In this document: positions 29,809 to 63,904 of the stretch, one piece after another | Layout: the number at the start of each line of letters is the position of its first letter | How positions within the stretch are numbered: the first letter of the stretch is position 1 | NCBI GenBank assembly: GCA_016867265.1 | Contig: VGJW01000008.1 | Span: 66,552 to 130,551 of the forward strand | Source: Candidatus Tanganyikabacteria bacterium | GTDB taxonomy: Bacteria > Cyanobacteriota > Sericytochromatia > S15B-MN24 > VGJW01 | Reading direction: 5' to 3' | Length of the DNA stretch: 64,000 nucleotides | Made by a program: the position numbers and the translations under genes | Notes under the pieces: generated by a model | What the model was told of the DNA's origin: nothing | Seen by the model: the letters and a program-made list of their open reading frames with translations, nothing else | Databases searched by the model: none

Positions 29809-29955
29809 GGCTTCACCATCCCCCGACGATAGCCGGGCGTCAACCGGAGAAGCACGCGACGCCGTGTCTTTGCCGGTTCTTCTCCGGATATTTACCAAGT
29901 CATGCCGACCTGTGACCGACAACCGGATCAGTCCCCCTCCGAGGAGCCCCACCCG

Positions 29956-31653
29956 ATGACCGCCATTCGCAGGCTGAACGCCCCCCAGGGCGCCGCCCCG
30001 CGCGTGGAGGCCGGCGGAGGCCCTTCGAAGCCGACCATGCGCTGGATCCCTTCCGTCAACCACAACGCACGGCCCGGCGGCAAGCGCGACATCGACACCA
30101 TTGTCCTGCACCACACGGGTGGCGGCTCGCTCAAGAGCAATGTGGCCTGGATGAACAACCCGGCCAGCAAGGTCTCCGCGCACTACACGGTGGGCAAGGA
30201 CGGCCGCATCGTCAACAGCGTCCAAGATCAGGACAGGGCCTGGCATGCGGGTACCAGCCGCTACAAGGGCCGTGACAACGTCAACGACTTCTCGGTGGGC
30301 ATCGAAATCGTCAACGAGGGTGACCACGTCGACCCCTATCCCCCCGAGCAGATGGAGGCCGTCGCGCACCTTGTCTCCTGGTTGATGGCGACCCATGGCA
30401 TCAGCTACGAGCGCATCACCGGGCACCGGGACGTTGCGTTGCCCAAGGGCCGCAAGGTCGACCCCTCGAACAATTTCGACTGGCAGGACCTGAAGGCTCG
30501 TGTGCAGCGGCACCTCGGCCAGGCCCCCACGCCACCCGGTGGCCAACCTTCCTCTCCGGTGGACCAGGCCCCGGCTCCCCGTCCGGCACCGGCCCCTGCA
30601 CGTCCAGACGGCACCGTCACCGTACACAAGGGCGACACGCTCTGGCATCTGGCCGAGGTCCACCTCGGCGACGCCACCCGCTGGCGCGAGATCTACGACG
30701 CGAACCGGGATCGCCTGAAGGACCCCAACCTCATCCTGCCCGGCCAGGTGCTGCGCCTGCCCGGCACGGCTGTCGCCCCTGCCCCCGGAGCGCAACCGGC
30801 CCAGCCCGCACCCGCGCAGCCTTCGCCGAATCAGCCTGCGCCGGTTCAGCCCGCCCCCGCGCAACCCGTCCCCGGGCAGCCAGCACCGGGCGGCACCATC
30901 CTGCCAGTCCACCCTCCGGCAGCACCGATGCCAGCCCGGCCCTATGTGCCGCCCGTCCAGGAGATCGCGCCGCCTCTGCCGCCCGTCCAGGCGCAGCCAG
31001 GTCCCCGACCTGCCCCAGCACCGGTACCCGCGCCTGCCCCCGTGCCGTCGCCGGCACCCGGTCGGCCCGCACCCCCACCCGGCGCGGGTGTTGACCGCCT
31101 GGGCTGGACCTTGCGGGGCGGAGCGCCCCTCGCGGGCGGCCTGATCGCCGGTGGCGCCGGATCAGCCTGGGGCGGTGCAGGCACGCGCCTCGGCTACGGC
31201 GCACGCATACCGGGTGGCTTGATGGGGTCAGCCCTCTTCGCGGGTCTTGGCGCCCTCGTGTCGAACCTCCTCGACTGGCGCGCGGGCAGGGTCAGCGGTC
31301 GCCAGGCCCTTCTGGGCACGGCTGTCGACACGGCCGCGTACACCGGCATCGCTGCCACCTCGACGTGGATCGGCGGCGCGCTGGGCAGCGTCCTTCCGGG
31401 GTTCGGCACCGCCATCGGCATGATCGCCGGCACGGCCGTGGGCGTCGGGCTCTCGTGGCTCTACGAAAAGTTCGTGCGGAGCCGCGGCATCGCGATGGCT
31501 GGCGCCGCGACCCAAGGCATCCGCAGCGACCTCGTGCCCCGGCCGGCCAGCGTGGGCGTGGTGCCTTCGGTGGACACCTTCACCCGCACGCCGACGCCAT
31601 CGTCGCCGCGCCCGTCCTTCGACAGCCGCAGCATGGTGCCCGAGGCTCGCTGA
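29956..31653 (+). CDS. N-acetylmuramoyl-L-alanine amidase (Amidase_2) + LysM + QPAP linker + glycine-zipper membrane domain
   Basis: IVLHHT, SAHY, RAWHAG, NDFSVGIEIV, GHRDVA..RK.DP; LysM VHKGDTLWHLA...IYDAN...NLILPGQVLRLP; C-terminal IGGALGSVLPGFGTAIG. Confidence 0.9.
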   Translation: MTAIRRLNAPQGAAPRVEAGGGPSKPTMRWIPSVNHNARPGGKRDIDTIVLHHTGGGSLKSNVAWMNNPASKVSAHYTVGKDGRIVNSVQDQDRAWHAGTSRYKGRDNVNDFSVGIEIVNEGDHVDPYPPEQMEAVAHLVSWLMATHGISYERITGHRDVALPKGRKVDPSNNFDWQDLKARVQRHLGQAPTPPGGQPSSPVDQAPAPRPAPAPARPDGTVTVHKGDTLWHLAEVHLGDATRWREIYDANRDRLKDPNLILPGQVLRLPGTAVAPAPGAQPAQPAPAQPSPNQPAPVQPAPAQPVPGQPAPGGTILPVHPPAAPMPARPYVPPVQEIAPPLPPVQAQPGPRPAPAPVPAPAPVPSPAPGRPAPPPGAGVDRLGWTLRGGAPLAGGLIAGGAGSAWGGAGTRLGYGARIPGGLMGSALFAGLGALVSNLLDWRAGRVSGRQALLGTAVDTAAYTGIAATSTWIGGALGSVLPGFGTAIGMIAGTAVGVGLSWLYEKFVRSRGIAMAGAATQGIRSDLVPRPASVGVVPSVDTFTRTPTPSSPRPSFDSRSMVPEAR

Positions 31654-32875: not shown

Positions 32876-33562
32876 TCAGCTGGCGACGGGAATGACCGAC
32901 GACCGGGCCTGTGCGGCAGGGATGGCCTGTGCCTGAACCGGTGCCGATGCTGCCTGGGTGTGCGCCACAGGCGCCGATGGGGTCGCGGGGGCGGCGGACT
33001 GGTTGACGAGACCTTCCAGCTGGCCCTGGATGGCGCCGTTCAGGCTCGGACGCACCTTGTTCTCGTAGAACTTGCCGGCGAAGTAGCTGAAGAGTGCGCC
33101 GACACCGATGCCGACGATGGTGCCGATGCCCGGAACCAGGCTGCCGACGAATCCACCGACCATGGTGGCGGTGGCGCCGATGCCCGTGTAGGCCACCGTA
33201 TCACCGGCCGTGTTGGCGACAAACTTGGTGAACGAGCTGCGGCCGCTGACGAGGTCAATCGCGTTGGTGAAGACCGACATCAGGCCAGCGAGGGCGAAGT
33301 TGCTCTTGAGCAGGCCGGGCAGGGCGCGCAGGCTGGTGCTGATGGCGCTGCCGATGCCCGAGAAGAAGCCACCACCAAGACCGGTGCCACCCGCGACCAT
33401 CGCACGCGTCGCATCCGCTCCGGCACGGGACAGTTGGAAGACATCACGAGCGGCGCCCAGCGCCTTGGCCGACTGGATGACCGGGACAGCGACCCGCAGG
33501 CCACCGTGCATGTCGGCGCTGGCGAAGGGGCCGACAGGTGCGGCAGGTCCGTTGATGGCCAT
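32876..33562 (-). CDS. Glycine-zipper membrane-domain protein (paralog 1)
   Basis: MAINGPAAPVG...; TNAIDLVSG...TAGDTVAYTGIGATATMVGGFVGSLVPGIGTIVGIGVG...FYENKVRP. Confidence 0.82.
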   Translation of the reverse strand: MAINGPAAPVGPFASADMHGGLRVAVPVIQSAKALGAARDVFQLSRAGADATRAMVAGGTGLGGGFFSGIGSAISTSLRALPGLLKSNFALAGLMSVFTNAIDLVSGRSSFTKFVANTAGDTVAYTGIGATATMVGGFVGSLVPGIGTIVGIGVGALFSYFAGKFYENKVRPSLNGAIQGQLEGLVNQSAAPATPSAPVAHTQAASAPVQAQAIPAAQARSSVIPVAS

Positions 33563-33598: not shown

Positions 33599-33648
33599 GG
33601 TTACGACGGTGTTGTCCGGAGAACGACGCCCGATACGGTAAACCTGCG
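33599..33648 (-). promoter_or_regulatory. Conserved 50-bp upstream element, copy 1
   Basis: CGCAGGTTTACCG-N18-GGACAA-N5-TCGTAACC; same blocks and spacing at 51641-51690. Confidence 0.75.
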
Positions 33649-42075: not shown

Positions 42076-43058
42076 TGGCCCAGCATCCGTCCCGAAATGA
42101 CGACCGAGGCGCTGGCCAGCTCCTTCTCGACCTTGCCGCCCGAGACGAAGCCCCAGTCCCCGGCATAGCTCTTGGCCGGATAGGTTCGCGCGACCAGAAT
42201 GCGCGTCAGGCATTCGGTGAACTCGCTGCGGAAGCCACCGGTAGCAGGACGTCCGGCCCGACTGTCATAGACGAACAGGCGCCCCGTATCCAGGAGGCCG
42301 GACGTCCGCGGGGAGCCGATGGCGGAATCGGCCAGCAACGCATAGGCCTCGGCAGAGATACCGGTAGACGGCAGGACGCCCGAGACGTCGGCACCGACAT
42401 GGATGGCGTTGGCTGACTCGGATATCCCGGACAATCTGTTCGCTCCGCTGTCGACCCGGCGCATGGCCGCCTCGGACAGGCCGAAACATTGCAGTCGGAC
42501 CACGTAGCGCACGCCGGTGGGGTCCGCGAGCGACGACGCGAAATCTGCCTGGTCATCCACGAGGGCAGAAAGTTCGCGGCCGGAGTTGTTGAACTTGAAG
42601 ACCGTACCGAAAGGAGTCTCGTTGAACCACGAACCGTAGAGATTGTCGACATTCAAGACGAGTGCGCCTCCGACCACTTTCGTGGGGATGGCGGCCAGCG
42701 CCCGGTTCGCCGGGGCCTCGATAGGGCGCCCATTGTCCGGGAACAGGTCGAAGAAGTACTGGGTGACCTGAGCGCCCTGCCGCTGCAGGCGATAGGCGCG
42801 GCCATAGCGCTGACCCTCGGTCATGAAAGCCAGGGAAGTCTCGGTGGCCAAATCCGCGAGGATGGTATCCAGAACACGATCGGCCAGGCTCTGCGCGTAG
42901 GGGCCTTCCATGGTCTTGGTGCCCGTCTTGGAGAAGCTCATCAGCAGCTGGGCCATGGAGCTCAGGATGATGCCCATGACGGCCGCGGCCACGAGGTTCT
43001 CGACGAGCGTGAAGCCCCGTGCCCGCCACCGCGGGGTAGAGCAGCCCGAAGATCGCAT
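42072..43058 (-). CDS. PilV-like minor pilin
   Basis: RG|FTLVENLVAAAVMGIIL. Confidence 0.8.
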   Translation of the reverse strand: MRSSGCSTPRWRARGFTLVENLVAAAVMGIILSSMAQLLMSFSKTGTKTMEGPYAQSLADRVLDTILADLATETSLAFMTEGQRYGRAYRLQRQGAQVTQYFFDLFPDNGRPIEAPANRALAAIPTKVVGGALVLNVDNLYGSWFNETPFGTVFKFNNSGRELSALVDDQADFASSLADPTGVRYVVRLQCFGLSEAAMRRVDSGANRLSGISESANAIHVGADVSGVLPSTGISAEAYALLADSAIGSPRTSGLLDTGRLFVYDSRAGRPATGGFRSEFTECLTRILVARTYPAKSYAGDWGFVSGGKVEKELASASVVISGRMLGQ

Positions 43059-43138
43059 GGCTGCATCGTTCCCCCCCAGTCAAGCCTCGTAACGGGCGGG
43101 CCGGCCTTGCCCCTTCGGGCATCCCGGGCGCCCGGGAG

Positions 43139-43621
43139 TTGCATTGCCACGCGGACGCCCTCCTGCTGCTGCGGCGCGGGCCGTACGGCCTCCGGGTGGT
43201 GGCCATTCCCCGGGACACCTGGCTGGCCCCGCTCGGCACCAAGGCCAACGGTGCGACATGGCGCCTTCCGCCCCGGGCGGCTCGGCTGGCGCTCGGCCGG
43301 GCCATCGGAGTCCGGATCGACGGCCATGTCGTGTTGACGATGGAGGGTGTGCAGCGCGCCGTGGACCTGATGGGCGGCATCGATGCGAATGTGCCGCACC
43401 CCCTGCGTGATGCCGACCGGACGGCCGGCCGGGAAATCGACCTGCCTGTCGGCCGCCAGCGCTTGGACGGGCGACGAGCGGTCCAATGGCTACGCTACAG
43501 GGGCCAAGGCTCGGACCTCGACCGCATGCGTCGCCTCGCGGAGTTGGCCCCCCAGCTGATCCGCGGCCTGCCCGGACCCGCAGGGCTCCTGGCCAGGGCC
43601 AGGCGTTTGGCTGGCACCTAG
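43139..43621 (+). pseudogene. LytR-CpsA-Psr (LCP) domain fragment, truncated or minimal
   Basis: ADALLL, AIPRDT, AVDLMGGI, LDGRRAVQWLRYR, SDLDRMRR; no TM anchor or first strand; in-frame stop at 43037. Confidence 0.55.
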
Positions 43622-43780
43622 GCCTGCGACGAGCCCATCTACGAATGGGGAGGCTGGTGCGCCGCGGGCCGAAGAGGCGTCACGTGGCGAATTTGGCCGG
43701 GCAGGGCCGCGCGTGGGCGGCCGCTGGGTGTGGCTGGGCGAGACCGAGGGCCTCGGGCGCCTGCTGGACCGCGAGGCGGA

Positions 43781-50900: not shown

Positions 50901-51614
50901 TCAGCCCTGGAACATCTTGGCTTCGACGGTCTTGCGGAAATCCGGCTTGAGCAGCTTGTCGTACATCTCGCCGGCAAGGATGCCGACGCCAGCTCCGACC
51001 AGCATGCCGATGAGCGTCCCCGCGACCGGCACGATGGAACCCACGAGCCCACCAATGGCAGTGCCCAGCGAACCTGCGACGGTATAGCCGATACCATCCG
51101 CGACCGTTCCGGCCAGCATCTGGTTCTGGGTGATCTGGCCTTTGCGCATGTCGATGAAGTTCTGCACGAAGGCCAACGGGAAGCTGATGAGCGCCCCGAG
51201 CTTGAGACTGCGGAACAGGTTCATCGGGTTCAGGGCCTGGCCGAGCGCCGCCCCGAAGGTCGGCTTGAGGCCCTTGATACCATCGACCGATGCCTTGAGC
51301 ATCAAGCCGGCATCTGCAGAGCGCGCCACAGCGGAGGCCGCGGCACGATTCATCATCTCGGGCACCATGCGCACCGGCGCCACGGCACCGATGACGTTCA
51401 GCGTATGCGCCCCGGGCCGGGCCATCGGGTCGACCGGAGAGGCCGCAGGCGCGGGAGAAGCCATGGGCATCGACGGGCCAGGCACGAAACGGTCGGGCTG
51501 CTGAACCGGCGCAGGCTGTGGCATCTGGCCGGGCTGGGGTACGGGGGCCAGCACCGGAGGCGTGGGCACGACGCTGGCAGCGGACCAAGGAGAGACGGCA
51601 GGGACCATCGTCAT
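50901..51614 (-). CDS. Glycine-zipper membrane-domain protein (paralog 2)
   Basis: QNFIDMRKG...TVADGIGYTVAGSLGTAIGGLVGSIVPVAGTLIGMLVG...MYDKLLKP. Confidence 0.82.
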   Translation of the reverse strand: MTMVPAVSPWSAASVVPTPPVLAPVPQPGQMPQPAPVQQPDRFVPGPSMPMASPAPAASPVDPMARPGAHTLNVIGAVAPVRMVPEMMNRAAASAVARSADAGLMLKASVDGIKGLKPTFGAALGQALNPMNLFRSLKLGALISFPLAFVQNFIDMRKGQITQNQMLAGTVADGIGYTVAGSLGTAIGGLVGSIVPVAGTLIGMLVGAGVGILAGEMYDKLLKPDFRKTVEAKMFQG

Positions 51615-51640: not shown

Positions 51641-51690
51641 GGTAACGAGGGGATTGTCCGAGAAGATGACTGTCGCTCGGTAAACCTGCG
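51641..51690 (-). promoter_or_regulatory. Conserved 50-bp upstream element, copy 2
   Basis: CGCAGGTTTACCG-N18-GGACAA-N5-TCGTTACC. Confidence 0.75.
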
Positions 51691-51697
51691 CCATGGA

Positions 51698-52534
51698 TCA
51701 GGTAAAGCTTTGCGTCGGATCCAGCGCGGCAGCGCGCATCGGATCCTCCGGCAACAGGAACATGTAGCCGACCCCGGGGATGTTACGCAGGCGCGGTGGC
51801 TCACCCGGGTATCGCTCCAGCTTGGCCCGGAGATTACGGATATGATTCCGGACCGCCTCCGGGCTGCCCTGCCCGGAGGCGTGGCCCAAACCCTCGGCCA
51901 ACAGGCGCGGCATGGGCACCACCTGACCTGGCGTCTCGAGCAGGCACTCGAGCAACGCGGCCTCGAGGGGCGTCAGATGGATGCGGCGGCCCTCCTCGCA
52001 CCATTCCGCCCGATCCAGATCCAGTACCGCGCTACCCAGGGATAGGACGCCACCGCGTCGCTGATCCGTGCCGGCGTGGCGCAGACGAGCTTGCAGACGC
52101 AGGAAAAGTTCCGCCACCTCGAACGGCGGAAGCACGACATCCGTGGCACCCTCGGCCAGCCACGCCGCACGATCGCCCGGGATGGCCATCGGCGCCAGAA
52201 GAATGACCGGTGCTCCTCGAAACGCGCCACGTCCGTCCAGGCACCAATGCGCGAGGGGCGGTCGGGGCCACAAGGCGAGGTCCAGGATGATGCCGCCATG
52301 GGGACCGTGCGGCAGCAGTCCCTCGAGCTCCCCGCGGGAGCGAATGGGACGAAGGGGCGTGCGAGCATCTGGCCACATCGCCAGCAAGAGGCGCTCGAGC
52401 CCACCATCGCCAAGGGCCAGCAGAATCTCCCTGCGGGAAGCAGAACGTCTCAGAGGGCACCTCCTTCGAGTCGGGACGCCTTCTGTATCCCCTTGGGTGT
52501 CACGGCATCCTTGGACGTTCCACACAGGATCCAC
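51698..52534 (-). CDS. Atypical OmpR-family response regulator (degenerate receiver; start uncertain)
   Basis: IILDL, GATDVVLPPFEVAEL, HLTPLEAALL, VRNHIRNLRAKLE, IPGVGY. Confidence 0.78.
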   Translation of the reverse strand: MDPVWNVQGCRDTQGDTEGVPTRRRCPLRRSASRREILLALGDGGLERLLLAMWPDARTPLRPIRSRGELEGLLPHGPHGGIILDLALWPRPPLAHWCLDGRGAFRGAPVILLAPMAIPGDRAAWLAEGATDVVLPPFEVAELFLRLQARLRHAGTDQRRGGVLSLGSAVLDLDRAEWCEEGRRIHLTPLEAALLECLLETPGQVVPMPRLLAEGLGHASGQGSPEAVRNHIRNLRAKLERYPGEPPRLRNIPGVGYMFLLPEDPMRAAALDPTQSFT

Positions 52535-52606: not shown

Positions 52607-53341
52607 ATGGAACTCTGGAGCCTCGGGGACTCGGAACACGTAGGGCGGGCCCTCGCAGAGGCCGCCCGGCGACGCGGGTGGACCATCAACCGCCTCGAGG
52701 GATGGCATGATCTGGGACAACTGATGAGCGATGGCCCACGGACAAGACTTGGCCACGTCCATCTCGACGGAGACGGCCTGGAACAGGGCACACGTCTGGC
52801 CGCAACCCTTCGGGCCGGGTCGGCACGGCTGGGTCCCGTGCTCGTCACGCTCGACCACGAGGGCGCGAGGGCCCGGCACCTGGCCTGGGCAACCGGCTGC
52901 TCCGAGGTGCTGGTCGCACCCTTGGACCAGCGGGAACTCGACCTCCGCCTCGAGGCCCTCGCCCGCCGTGCGCTGCGCCAGAAGCCACGCGCGCTACCCT
53001 TGGACGAGCGCACCGTGCCTTCGTGGATACGGGTCGAGGACAGCCACGTGCGCCTGACGCCATCCGAGGCGGCCATCCTGCACTACCTGGCCAGGCGCCC
53101 GGGCAGGGCCATTGGTGCCCACGAGCTTCTTGCAACCGCCATGGGCTATGCCCCCGGCGAGGGTCACCCAGACATCATCCGCACCCACATGCGTCGCCTG
53201 CGCGGCAAGCTCGGGGCGTGCCGCGCAGCCATCGTGACACGCGCCGGCCACGGCTACCGCTGGGAGGGAAGCGAGGGCCTGCAAATACAGGACGGCCTTC
53301 CCCGGATCCAGAGACCGGGAAAGGCCGACCTTACAGCTTGA
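52607..53341 (+). CDS. Atypical OmpR-family response regulator (degenerate receiver)
   Basis: AGGAGG RBS; GCSEVLVAPLDQREL, RLTPSEAAIL, IRTHMRRLRGKL, AGHGYRW. Confidence 0.8.
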   Translation: MELWSLGDSEHVGRALAEAARRRGWTINRLEGWHDLGQLMSDGPRTRLGHVHLDGDGLEQGTRLAATLRAGSARLGPVLVTLDHEGARARHLAWATGCSEVLVAPLDQRELDLRLEALARRALRQKPRALPLDERTVPSWIRVEDSHVRLTPSEAAILHYLARRPGRAIGAHELLATAMGYAPGEGHPDIIRTHMRRLRGKLGACRAAIVTRAGHGYRWEGSEGLQIQDGLPRIQRPGKADLTA

Positions 53342-62014: not shown

Positions 62015-62845
62015 TCAGCCCTGCTTGCCAGGTACGCGTATACCGCGGGCTTGGAAGCCCCAATCGAAGAGCCTCCGGGCATCGCGCCACAAGTTTCGGC
62101 TGCCCAGCATCACCACCGTCAACATGGAATCCTGTGCGGCACCGACATAGCAGCGGCCGGCCGCGTTCGTGAAACCCGTCTTGCCCAGAACAGGCGTCCC
62201 GTAGGCAGCGAGCAGCTTGTTGGTGTTGCGGACGCGATGGCTCTCATGCTGTCCCGGCCACGCCAGATCGACCGACTGGGTCTGGGCGATGGCCACGAAT
62301 ACGGGACTCGCCATGGCGACACGGAAGATCAGCGCGAGGTCGCGGGCTGTCGTGAGATGGCCGGCGGCATGGAGCCCATTGGGCGTGACGAAGTGCGTGT
62401 CGGTCGCGCCCAGCGCACGGGCCTTGGCATTCATCATCAGGGCGAAACGCTCCTGGGTGCCCCCGACATGCTCGGCCAGCGCCACCGAGGCGTCATTGGC
62501 GGACATCAGCAACATCGCATAGAGCAACTCGAGGACCGTGTAACGCTCACCGGCCCGGACACCCATCCGGGAAGGGGGCATCCGGGACGCGGACGCACTG
62601 ATGGTGACGACATCCTCGAGGGGGACGGCATCAAGGACCGTCAGGGCCGTCAGGACCTTGGTGGTGCTGGCATTGGGCAAGGGCTTCTCGGCATCCCTCT
62701 GGAAGAGGATGTGGCCCTCGGCATCAACCACGATGGCCGAGCGCGCGGAGAGGACCGGCGCCGGGACCACGCCCTGGGCTTGGCAGGGCACCGCCAGCCC
62801 GAGCACCAGGACCCCGGCCGCCATGATTCGCAAGAGCCGCACCAA
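62015..62845 (-). CDS. D-alanyl-D-alanine carboxypeptidase (peptidase S11)
   Basis: Signal peptide; SxxK (STTK), SxN (SAN), KTG. Confidence 0.93.
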   Translation of the reverse strand: MVRLLRIMAAGVLVLGLAVPCQAQGVVPAPVLSARSAIVVDAEGHILFQRDAEKPLPNASTTKVLTALTVLDAVPLEDVVTISASASRMPPSRMGVRAGERYTVLELLYAMLLMSANDASVALAEHVGGTQERFALMMNAKARALGATDTHFVTPNGLHAAGHLTTARDLALIFRVAMASPVFVAIAQTQSVDLAWPGQHESHRVRNTNKLLAAYGTPVLGKTGFTNAAGRCYVGAAQDSMLTVVMLGSRNLWRDARRLFDWGFQARGIRVPGKQG

Positions 62846-63148
62846 GCGTGTCCCTCCGCCCTTCTTCTACCCACCGGCGCGGCGTTGCGACAGGGCCGCG
62901 GTCACCAAACATCCTGCGACATCCCGGCTGCGGCGACCGATGGCTCGAGGGTCATGTGACCAAGCGCACAGACCCGCCCGACATCGGCTCTCCCGCAGCG
63001 GCCGGTTGCGTGCTAGAGTTGTCAAGAAGGCGTCAGGACCGCCCCTCCGTCAAATCTTCATCAAATCCCACAAGCCGGTCCGCGATGTTTTCGATAACCC
63101 GACGAATCTAGCTGGCAAACTTCCCGGTGTCCTCGAGTGAGGGGGATC

Positions 63149-63904
63149 ATGTCCGTCATGGAAAAGGCCTTCAAGGGCGCTTCGCCCGAAGAGAAGGAAA
63201 AGCTCGTCAATCAGTTTCTTCCCCTGGTGCGGAAAATCGCACGGGGCCTCGCTCGGCGAAGCACCGACCCGGTGGAAGATCTCGTCCAGGTCGGTTCCAT
63301 TGGCCTTCTTGAAGCCATCGAGCGCTACGAGACCGGTCACAACACCGAGTTCAAGACCTACGCCGTACATTTCATTACCGGCCACATCCGCCATTACCTG
63401 CGGGATCGGCAAAGTCTGCTGCGCGGACCCCGCGTCTTGCAAGAGCTCTCCTACCGCCTGTCTCAGGTCGCGGCCAAGCTGACCCAGGAGTTCGGCCGCG
63501 ATCCTCAGAACCACGAGCTGGCCAAGGCCCTCGACGTGTCGCCCGAGCTGGTCGATGAGGTCAAGGTCTACGACCGCAGGGTCACGGTGCTGTGGCTGGA
63601 TCAGGACGGAAACGACGGCGACGACGACGAGCAGCGCTCGCTCCTCGAAAGCCTTTCGGATCCTCGCTTCACGGGCGAGGCCCGCGAAGTCACGGATGAG
63701 CGCCTCGTCCTGACGGAGGCGATGGGCCGCCTTCCCTCCTCACAGCGCGAATTGCTCGAGATGCGCTACTTCCAGGACCTGACGCAGGCGGAGTTGTCGC
63801 GCCGCCTTGGCATCTCTCAGATGGAAGTCTGCCGACGGCTCAAGAAGGCCGAGAAGCAGCTCCGGCAGGTCCTGACCATGCCGCTGCAGCGGACCGCAAA
63901 CTAG
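63149..63904 (+). CDS. Group 3 RNA polymerase sigma factor, SigB/SigF type
   Basis: EDLVQVGSIGLLEAIERY, FKTYAVHFITGHIRHYLRD, LTQAELSRRLGISQMEVCR. Confidence 0.92.
   Translation: MSVMEKAFKGASPEEKEKLVNQFLPLVRKIARGLARRSTDPVEDLVQVGSIGLLEAIERYETGHNTEFKTYAVHFITGHIRHYLRDRQSLLRGPRVLQELSYRLSQVAAKLTQEFGRDPQNHELAKALDVSPELVDEVKVYDRRVTVLWLDQDGNDGDDDEQRSLLESLSDPRFTGEAREVTDERLVLTEAMGRLPSSQRELLEMRYFQDLTQAELSRRLGISQMEVCRRLKKAEKQLRQVLTMPLQRTAN

Follow-up and report, generated by a model that had tools for sequence, protein, structure and literature searches.

A Candidate Composite Promoter of Envelope and Cell-Wall Genes in Non-Photosynthetic Relatives of Cyanobacteria

Introduction

Why do the genes for two distantly similar glycine-zipper proteins carry the same three-block element, with the same internal spacing, upstream of their start codons? 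This question is raised by a 64,000-nt stretch of the genome of a Candidatus Tanganyikabacteria bacterium (contig VGJW01000008.1), herein referred to as the window, in which the element is located at positions 33599-33648 (site 1) and 51641-51690 (site 2). The genome, herein referred to as G000, is represented by an assembly of 2.85 Mb with a G+C content of 67% and 41 contigs. It belongs to a lineage of non-photosynthetic cyanobacterial relatives; to our knowledge, the lineage has no cultured member. Nothing in print on the transcription signals of the lineage was found in literature searches.

The element is probably a composite promoter that defines a regulon and that would be used by an alternative sigma factor together with an activator of the PhoB/OmpR type. 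In its full form, this promoter includes three direct repeats with an 11-bp period (CTTAAC, CTTAAC, and CTTTACCG), followed at a distance of 19 nt from TTTACC (18 nt if the subsequent G is counted with the repeat) by the box cCGAYAA. Judging by sequence comparison, approximately 25 such promoters are present in G000 and similar numbers in four related families, upstream of genes for extracytoplasmic and cell-wall proteins.

Results

Predicted Promoters of the Two Glycine-Zipper Genes

Both sites are located on the minus strand. Site 1 reads CGCAGGTTTACCG-N18-GGACAA-N5-TCGTAACC (33648-33599), and site 2 reads CGCAGGTTTACCG-N18-GGACAA-N5-TCGTTACC (51690-51641). As described in an earlier note on this DNA, block 1 is identical in 13/13 positions and the offsets between the blocks are equal; block 2 is identical in 6/6 positions and block 3 in 7/8. 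In the pairwise comparison, the spacers have diverged. The identical spacing claimed in that note holds between the blocks but not for the distance to the start codons, which is 36 nt for site 1 (ATG at 33562) and 26 nt for site 2 (ATG at 51614). The exact 13-mer CGCAGGTTTACCG was found solely at these two sites, both in the window and in the whole genome. The 13-mer alone, with at most two mismatches, was found two times in the window vs. 1.23 times expected, which is not significant; the significance of the element comes from the composite structure and the comparative data rather than from the 13-mer.

At site 1, the proximal repeat GTTTACCG, which is the core of block 1, occupies the -35 position (33636-33643, approximately -39 to -32). 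It is preceded, in the 11-bp phase, by CTTCACC (33654-33648) and by the weak unit ATTGGGG (33665-33659). Block 2 corresponds to the predicted -10 element cGGACAA (33612-33618), a genus variant of CCGATAA, and block 3, TCGTAACC (33599-33606), to the predicted initiation region, with +1 at G 33604 and a 5' untranslated region (5'UTR) of 42 nt. This promoter is predicted to drive the gene for P0001, a glycine-zipper protein of 228 aa (32876-33562, minus strand). The same arrangement at site 2 comprises the proximal repeat GTTTACCG at the -35 position (51678-51685), the degenerate middle unit CCATGGC (51696-51690), and the distal unit CTTTACC (51707-51701), which overlaps the end of the upstream winged-helix (wHTH) gene; further downstream are the -10 element cGGACAA (51654-51660) and the initiation region TCGTTACC (51641-51648), with the predicted +1 at G 51646 and a 5'UTR of 32 nt. 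The predicted target here is the gene for P0002, a glycine-zipper protein of 237 aa (50901-51614, minus strand), which scored 19.8 bits with the Gly-zipper_Omp model, under the cut-off. In both proteins, the glycine-zipper region is C-terminal, and their identity is 31% over 134 residues.

In four genomes of the genus, block 3 reads TCGTAACC, TCGTAACC, TCGTCACC, and TTGTCTTC at site 1 and TCGTTACC, TCGTTACC, TTGTCACC, and TTGTCAGT at site 2. It is predicted to be a mere initiation region, common only to both paralog promoters and their closest orthologs. The proposed composition of three blocks is therefore to be reduced: blocks 1 and 2 are the invariant promoter parts, and block 3 falls outside the regulon-wide element.

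Apart from block 3, sites 1 and 2 share two further identical segments that are absent from other members of the regulon, namely cgcagg before TTTACC and ttctc before GGACAA. This additional identity may reflect common descent of both promoters or a paralog-specific factor. It would also fit an explanation of the whole element as a relic of duplication, a product of gene conversion between the paralog promoters (with no regulatory role other than that of a common promoter), or a structured RNA element of the 5'UTR. Such an explanation is highly improbable, since blocks 1 and 2 are intact although the proteins have diverged to the identity given above and the spacers are randomized, and the same blocks precede unrelated genes across four families. 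Since both precede the predicted start, blocks 1 and 2 are not expected to be part of the RNA. Folding of the predicted 5'UTRs is not better than that of shuffled sequences (z = -0.80 and +1.58), longer stretches fold worse, and no Rfam match was found in 29500-52500.

Distribution of the Promoter in the Analyzed Genomes

The comparison set included 41 genomes, G000 among them: 27 genomes of the order (families f1-f4) and 14 genomes of f5-f7. Homologues of P0002 were found in 27 of the 41 genomes, that is in all genomes of f1-f4 and in none of f5-f7. The pattern TTTACC-N19/20-[CG]GA[TC]A[ATG] was found upstream in 18 of the 30 fetched homologue loci, and TTTACC is invariant in all 18 of them. 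These 18 loci and seven further sites of G000 were combined in an alignment of 25 sites. An independent set of 40 sites included every displayed pattern match from six other genomes, except for sites already used and one site at a contig edge. TTTACC is followed by G in 19/25 aligned and 26/40 independent sites.

In G000, the stricter pattern TTTACC-N19/20-[CG]GA[CT]AA was found seven times, each time upstream of an open reading frame (ORF), whereas zero to two matches were obtained with each of nine alternative spacer lengths. A weight matrix found 19 sites with at least 20 bits, including 8 that had been in the training set, vs. none in the reversed genome; with at least 14 bits, the numbers were 25 and 2, respectively. 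The top matches all precede ORFs, most of them with a Shine-Dalgarno sequence. A matrix of the repeats only, derived from other genomes alone, gave 29 matches in G000 vs. 1 in the control. Across the 27 genomes of f1-f4, the pattern was found 190 times vs. 31 times in the backward control, and across the 14 genomes of f5-f7, 158 times vs. 218 times. The earlier note had proposed a promoter of an alternative sigma factor or a transcription factor site defining a regulon; the enrichment of matrix hits before ORFs (19 vs. 0) speaks in favor of this proposal and against a mere relic of duplication.

Repeat Array and Two Promoter Classes

In the following, columns of the array are numbered from the first T of TTTACC. 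At positions not used in the selection of sites, TT was found in columns -22/-21 of 25/25 sites and in columns -11/-10 of 21/25 sites. Among the 40 independent sites, T was found in 33 at -22, 34 at -21, 31 at -11, and 34 at -10, and the column majorities are CTTAAC at -23 to -18, CTTAAC at -12 to -7, and CTTTACCG at -1 to +6. Because the upstream TT columns are conserved, block 1 can be considered one of three direct repeats with 11-bp spacing, namely the one closest to the promoter core. By these alignments, the array is composed of three to four direct repeats with the consensus CTTAAC / CTTTACC, exactly 11 bp apart. The segment GGTTTACCG, read earlier as a -35 box of the SigB/F type, does lie at the -35 position, but it is part of this array, whose design is that of PhoB/OmpR-type activator sites, and too far from the -10 box for a promoter of that type. 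Promoters of the SigB/SigF type have the form GTTTaa-N12-14-GGGTAt; here, (G)TTTAC recurs, but it is followed by a longer spacer (19-20 nt) and by CGAYAA as the -10 box.

Two classes of promoters were distinguished. For the sites found in G000 by the repeat-only matrix, the best -10-like block follows the array after a spacer of 19/20 nt (8 sites) or 30/31 nt (6 sites), with no other spacer found. All eight homologue loci of f4 belong to the long class (class 2), having the structure rCAA[GT]-N16-17-[CG]GAT[AG][AT] with the array located 11 bp further out. The two classes thus differ by exactly one repeat period, and the long class has a separate -35 pentamer. Since the array moves by one repeat and the pentamer takes the -35 place, the array is likely to be bound by another protein and not by the -35-binding domain of a sigma factor. 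The genome-wide count of the class 2 pattern is uninformative, as other spacer settings gave similar counts; our guess is that these are due to the periodicity of GACAAG in coding sequences.

A group-3 sigma factor might also read the promoter without any activator, in which case TTTACCG would be the true -35 box and the phased upstream TTs would serve for UP-element-like contacts of the RNA polymerase alpha subunits. In favor of this, conservation is much stronger in the proximal unit than in the distal ones, with TTTACC invariant in the 18 homologue loci; TTTACCG at -38 to -32 relative to the predicted start overlaps the sigma-28 -35 box at -36 to -30; and the upstream TTs are located near -49 and -60, where contacts of the alpha subunit are known. 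This explanation is nevertheless quite unlikely, as class 2 combines the array shifted by 11 bp with rCAAG at 17 nt from the -10 box, and a sigma domain cannot stretch over one helical turn. Additionally, all three units share the CTTAAC consensus, which is the design of a Pho box.

The cyanobacterial Pho box bound by SphR/PhoB is described as at least three tandem 8-bp units with the consensus CTTAACCT and 3-bp linkers (PMC1906773), and the examples given there include boxes ending in CTTTACCG (nucH of PCC 6301) and CTTTACCA (pstS1 of PCC 6803). The array agrees with this design in both respects: it has at least two to three direct repeats with an 11-bp period beside or in place of the -35 box, and its column majorities correspond to the consensus CTTAACCT.

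The Predicted -10 Box and Transcription Start

In genomes of other genera, block 2 mostly reads CGATAA with a C before it, which gives CCGATAA; in the genus of the window, CGACAA or GGACAA was found, along with GGATAA in the site 1 ortholog of the genome G003. The resemblance of CGACAA to the sigma-28 box CCGATAA, pointed out earlier, is therefore literal in relatives, which makes the -10 box sigma-28-like. Its columns in the 25 sites are C 18/25, G 25/25, A 25/25, Y 25/25, A 25/25, and A 21/25, of which the search pattern prescribed G, A, Y, and A but not the preceding C. Among the 40 independent sites, the unselected base before GA is C in 19 and G in 15. Thus, cCGAYAA is the predicted -10 box, at approximately -14 to -8. 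The sigma-28 promoter consensus is given as TAAAGTTT-n11-GCCGATAA (PMC2859248), and the box found here agrees with GCCGATAA including the invariant CGA. The sigma-28 -35 box does not recur: 15 nt before the 8-mer, where TAAA would be expected, class 1 has CCGn and class 2 has rCAAG or GAAAG.

At 5/25 sites, ATG is located exactly 7 nt past the hexamer. The ORFs that begin there are 188-469 aa long, and lipoprotein precursors are encoded by at least two of them; the chance rate for ATG at one given offset is roughly 0.01 per site. In the gene for a subtilase lipoprotein, a TTG start is located 5 nt past the hexamer. The exact position of ATG at 7 nt suggests leaderless mRNAs, with +1 eight bases after the last A. 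The start of transcription is therefore predicted 8 nt after the last A of the hexamer. The predicted +1 is a purine in 36/40 independent sites and -1 is a pyrimidine in 30/40; T was never found at -7. For the fliC promoter of Pseudomonas, (-15)GCCGATAA(-8) was reported, and in the sigma-28 open complex, position -7 is neither flipped nor conserved (PMC12784957). The start geometry predicted here, from leaderless ORFs and the purine at +1, is that of the fliC promoter, and the start falls in the sigma-28 range of 7-8 nt past the -10 box.

Predicted Regulon of G000

The predicted regulon includes the two glycine-zipper proteins of the window and a third one encoded on contig 16. The other members are a fusion of Amidase_2 and LysM, a LysM and Amidase_6 protein, a protein with four PG_binding_1 domains and its paralog, two Peptidase_C39_2 proteins, the subtilase lipoprotein, a CarboxypepD_reg lipoprotein, several lipoproteins without an assigned family, a Flp-type pilin of 53 aa, and a DUF4332 protein.

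The Amidase_2 fusion is encoded in the window (29956-31653, plus strand; likely start ATG 29956 after GAGGAG) and also includes a proline-rich linker and a glycine zipper. The partial copy of the element previously noticed before this gene is real and represents a third promoter (29868-29922, plus strand; 36.2 bits with the weight matrix; predicted +1 at A 29930). Its units are CTTTGCC (29868-29874), CTTCTCC (29879-29885), and TTTACC (29891-29896), followed after N20 by CGACAA (29917-29922); the gap from TTTACC to the -10 hexamer is thus 20 nt vs. 19 nt at sites 1 and 2.

Late flagellar or chemotaxis genes would be expected in a sigma-28 regulon, but no flagellar gene was found among the downstream genes examined in G000. 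Likewise, phosphate-acquisition genes (such as pst and phoA) would be expected in a Pho regulon, but none was found among the targets in G000. Two PstS models gave no match in G000, and the best PstB match scored 215 vs. the cut-off of 343. Genes of the PBP_like_2 family were found in just 3 of the 27 genomes of the order, none of them with the motif. On these grounds, a phosphate regulon was rejected.

A gene for a D-alanyl-D-alanine carboxypeptidase (Peptidase_S11; 62015-62845, minus strand) is located in the window, divergently from the SigF-type gene described below; its function fits the cell-wall theme.

Candidate Activator

Seven full-length regulators of the OmpR family were found in G000, and no composite promoter was seen upstream of their genes. 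One of them is an ortholog of RpaB (331.3 vs. the cut-off of 330). A PhoB-like regulator encoded on contig 19 (28951-29637) scored 273.6 with the PhoB model, vs. the cut-off of 296.2; this protein would be the best candidate for the reader of the array. It is 84-99% identical across f1-f4, although PBP_like_2 genes are rare in this order and PstS is unmatched in G000, and 76-79% identical in f5-f7.

The OmpR-type wHTH gene adjoining site 2 (51698-52534, minus strand) was rejected as the order-wide reader because its product evolves too fast for a motif conserved across the order, with identities of 91, 73, and 61% within the genus and of at most 41% elsewhere. It forms a divergent pair with another OmpR-type winged-helix gene (52607-53341, plus strand); the only Pfam domain in the pair is Trans_reg_C, with no recognizable receiver domain, and the pair as a whole shows 61-91% identity within the genus. 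In G004, a comparable divergent pair adjoins the ortholog of P0002; G005 and G007 also have comparable pairs.

Candidate Sigma Factor

The sigma genes found in G000 encode two RpoD-like proteins, two extracytoplasmic function (ECF) sigma factors, a canonical FliA (contig 15; 253.6 vs. the cut-off of 189.6), a divergent FliA-like protein (130.9), and two proteins of the SigB/F type. The latter are SigF-1, encoded in the window, and SigF-2, encoded on contig 10; they are 66% identical. SigF-1 is a group-3 sigma factor of the SigB/F/G type (63137-63904, plus strand; likely start ATG 63150 or 63159), with 194 bits in the TIGR02980 model (cut-off 234) and 187 bits in the cyanobacterial SigF model.

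The sigF-1 gene has a predicted promoter of its own (63070-63097, plus strand), composed of ACAAG (63070-63074), N17, and CGATAA (63092-63097). It combines the -10 box of the regulon with the -35 type of class 2, and the presence of rCAAG-N17-CGATAA before the sigF-1 gene suggests autoregulation. Autoregulation is also reported for SigF of Synechocystis (PMC2532724). The pattern r[C/A]AAG-N15-19-[CG]GA[TC]A[AT] was found upstream of 15/21 SigF-1 orthologs vs. 0/21 in the reversed regions, and its genome-wide rate is 0.0066 per 205 nt; the pattern was written after inspection of these upstream regions. The first base of the -35 box is G or A, never T, in 15/15 sigF-1 promoters and in 8/8 class 2 promoters of glycine-zipper genes. 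No such promoter was found for the other sigma genes of G000, sigF-1 being the only one, and no composite promoter was seen upstream of the sigF-2, fliA, and fliA-like genes. Orthologs of SigF-1 with 72-99% identity were found in most genomes of f1-f4, whereas the best identities in f6-f7 reach just 33-53%.

The SigF-type gene, placed at 63149, had already been named in the earlier note as a candidate reader. Its conserved promoter with the same -10 box strengthens this proposal, with FliA as the rival. We give SigF-1 and/or SigF-2 about an even chance of being the reader of the -10 box; FliA is appreciably less likely, and some other sigma factor accounts for the rest of the odds.

Several observations weigh against an activator-dependent promoter read by SigF-1. 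The exact pattern was not enriched in the genomes G006, G010, and G014. The best match to SigF-1 is 67% identical in G008 (f2), and the best full-length match is 70% identical in G023; another exception is G026, with a best full-length match of 69% and two fragments of 86 and 81%. One genome of f5 has a SigF-1 homologue with 69% identity and no enrichment of the motif. The PhoB-like regulator also occurs in f5-f7 and is therefore not set apart by its distribution. The promoter reported for SigF of Synechocystis, TAGGC / GGTAA (PMC2532724), is unlike the element found here. The -10 box is the sigma-28/FliA consensus, and the genome has a canonical FliA above the cut-off, along with a canonical flagellin promoter TAAAGGTT-N11-TCCGACAT. 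Residue R80 of sigma-28 contacts -12G (PMC12784957). The presumably corresponding R of Pseudomonas FliA ('YAGIRIRG') is aligned with F in SigF-1 ('YAVHFITG'), and the FliA of G000 has R ('YAATRIRG'). Assuming the inferred offset in numbering, SigF-1 thus appears to lack the R contacting -12G that is kept in FliA of G000. Finally, sigF-1 promoters of f4, for example GAAAGTTT-N11-CGCGATAA, are one base from the sigma-28 promoter, and this proximity makes a cascade from FliA to SigF-1 possible.

The same promoter and regulon might be read by FliA, recruited by the repeat-bound activator to promoters lacking TAAA, with the sigF-1 promoter as a step of the cascade. The identity of the start-site geometry with that of sigma-28 would fit this possibility, as would the -10-contacting residues of the FliA of G000, which are kept by inspection, and the one-base difference of the f4 sigF-1 promoters from the sigma-28 consensus. 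The match of cCGAYAA to GCCGATAA counts likewise; the aer promoter of Escherichia coli uses GCCGACAT and also provides a known case of an activator-dependent sigma-28 promoter, with CRP as the activator (PMC2859248). It is also known that autolysins belong to the SigD regulon of Bacillus subtilis. Nevertheless, none of the approximately 25 target genes is flagellar, and FliA is present in f5-f7, too, where the motif is not enriched. Moreover, the recognized sigma-28-type flagellin promoters of the order have TAAAG, in contrast to the G or A found as the first base in all the sigF-1 and class 2 promoters mentioned above. In E. coli, a T-to-C substitution at this first base of the -35 box reduced the activity of a sigma-28 promoter approximately tenfold (PMC2859248). 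Reading of the whole regulon by FliA is therefore possible but rather unlikely.

The divergent FliA-like sigma factor of contig 5 is disfavored as the reader. No ortholog of it was found in G004, where the best match (35%) is the canonical FliA and where 15 matches of the motif were found vs. 2 in the control. Across the whole class, this protein shows 55-63% identity.

The exact pattern of canonical FliA promoters gave one convincing site in G000, upstream of the contig 15 flagellin. Flagellin leaders are long, and many promoters lie beyond the 150 nt displayed. The genome encodes flagellins and two FlhA proteins, whose genes (contig 15, 51611-58682; contig 5, 75940-82001) are each located near their own FliA-type sigma gene, the canonical one on contig 15 and the divergent one on contig 5. 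The flagellin genes (contig 15, 74038-77515; loci L129-L158) have long leaders in which a conserved cacGGAtg is located in an inverted repeat before the Shine-Dalgarno sequence, reminiscent of CsrA-type sites.

Directly upstream of ACAAG in the sigF-1 promoter, two direct repeats TCAAATC with an 11-bp period are located (63050-63067, plus strand). They are kept in 4/4 genomes of the genus and are unlike the CTTAAC repeats. On contig 4, GCAAG-N17-CCGATAA with CTTTCTC upstream (approximately 43650-43704, minus strand) precedes an RpoD-like gene (42351-43403).

Discussion

In the favored reading, a PhoB/OmpR-family response regulator would dock on the repeat array and substitute for contact with a -35 box, in the manner of class II activators at Pho boxes, and a group-3 sigma factor, with SigF-1 and/or its contig 10 paralog as the best candidate, would read the -10 box. 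In the second class, the array would be bound one repeat (11 bp) further upstream, with the rCAAG -35 box present.

Three known systems are close to this arrangement. Promoters of sigma-28 (FliA/SigD/WhiG; TAAAGTTT-N11-GCCGATAA) have the same -10 box, with G at -12 and A at -11 invariant and -7 unconserved, and the same predicted start 8 nt after the last A; the class 2 geometry of rCAAG or GAAAG with N16-17 equals that of TAAAG-N16. They differ in that here TAAA is missing, with TTTACCG of class 1 lying further upstream by two bases, genes of the envelope and cell wall are targeted instead of flagellar ones, the upstream array is obligatory, and the reader may belong to the SigB/F clade. With the Pho box, the array shares three to four direct repeats of CTTAAC with an 11-bp period and a last unit CTTTACC(G/A) like those of pstS1 and nucH, and, as in class II activation by PhoB of E. 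coli, it abuts or replaces the -35 box. Unlike Pho boxes, it has no phosphate targets, stands before a -10 box of the group-3 type rather than a TATAAT-like one, and ends 18-19 nt, not approximately 10 nt, from this box. The SigF system of Synechocystis (pilA1 and sigF; -32 TAGGC / -12 GGTAA) involves a group-3 SigF-type sigma factor of a sister lineage, with pilin and surface targets and probable autoregulation; here, in contrast, the promoters have CGAYAA with TTTACC or rCAAG, and the pilin is of the Flp/Tad type.

Taken singly, the ingredients are textbook ones: a -10 box like that of sigma-28, an array of the Pho-box type, class II activation, and transcripts without leaders. What is new is their combination, along with the genes targeted and the lineage concerned. 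If the proposed mechanism is correct, nature would here clearly have joined the -10 box of an alternative sigma factor to a repeat array of the PhoB type. Activator-dependent promoters of alternative sigma factors are said to be few (PMC2859248). It would also show that a Pho-box-type operator can be retained in a lineage without identified targets of the classical Pho kind.

More tentatively, and with the odds rather against it, a duplicated sigma factor of the SigF clade with sigma-28-like specificity (rCAAG-N17-CGATAA) and a retained but repurposed SphR/PhoB-type regulator acting on Pho-box arrays might run an autoregulated envelope program in an order that has largely lost Pst. If so, this program would include cell-wall hydrolases, surface lipoproteins, the Tad pilin, and glycine-zipper membrane proteins, and its promoters would form a class of alternative-sigma promoters dependent on a class II activator. 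For each genome, the promoter gives a handle, from sequence only, on approximately 25 mostly unannotated genes for secreted, lipoprotein, and cell-wall-active proteins; it predicts their transcription starts, including leaderless ones, and nominates two candidate regulators.

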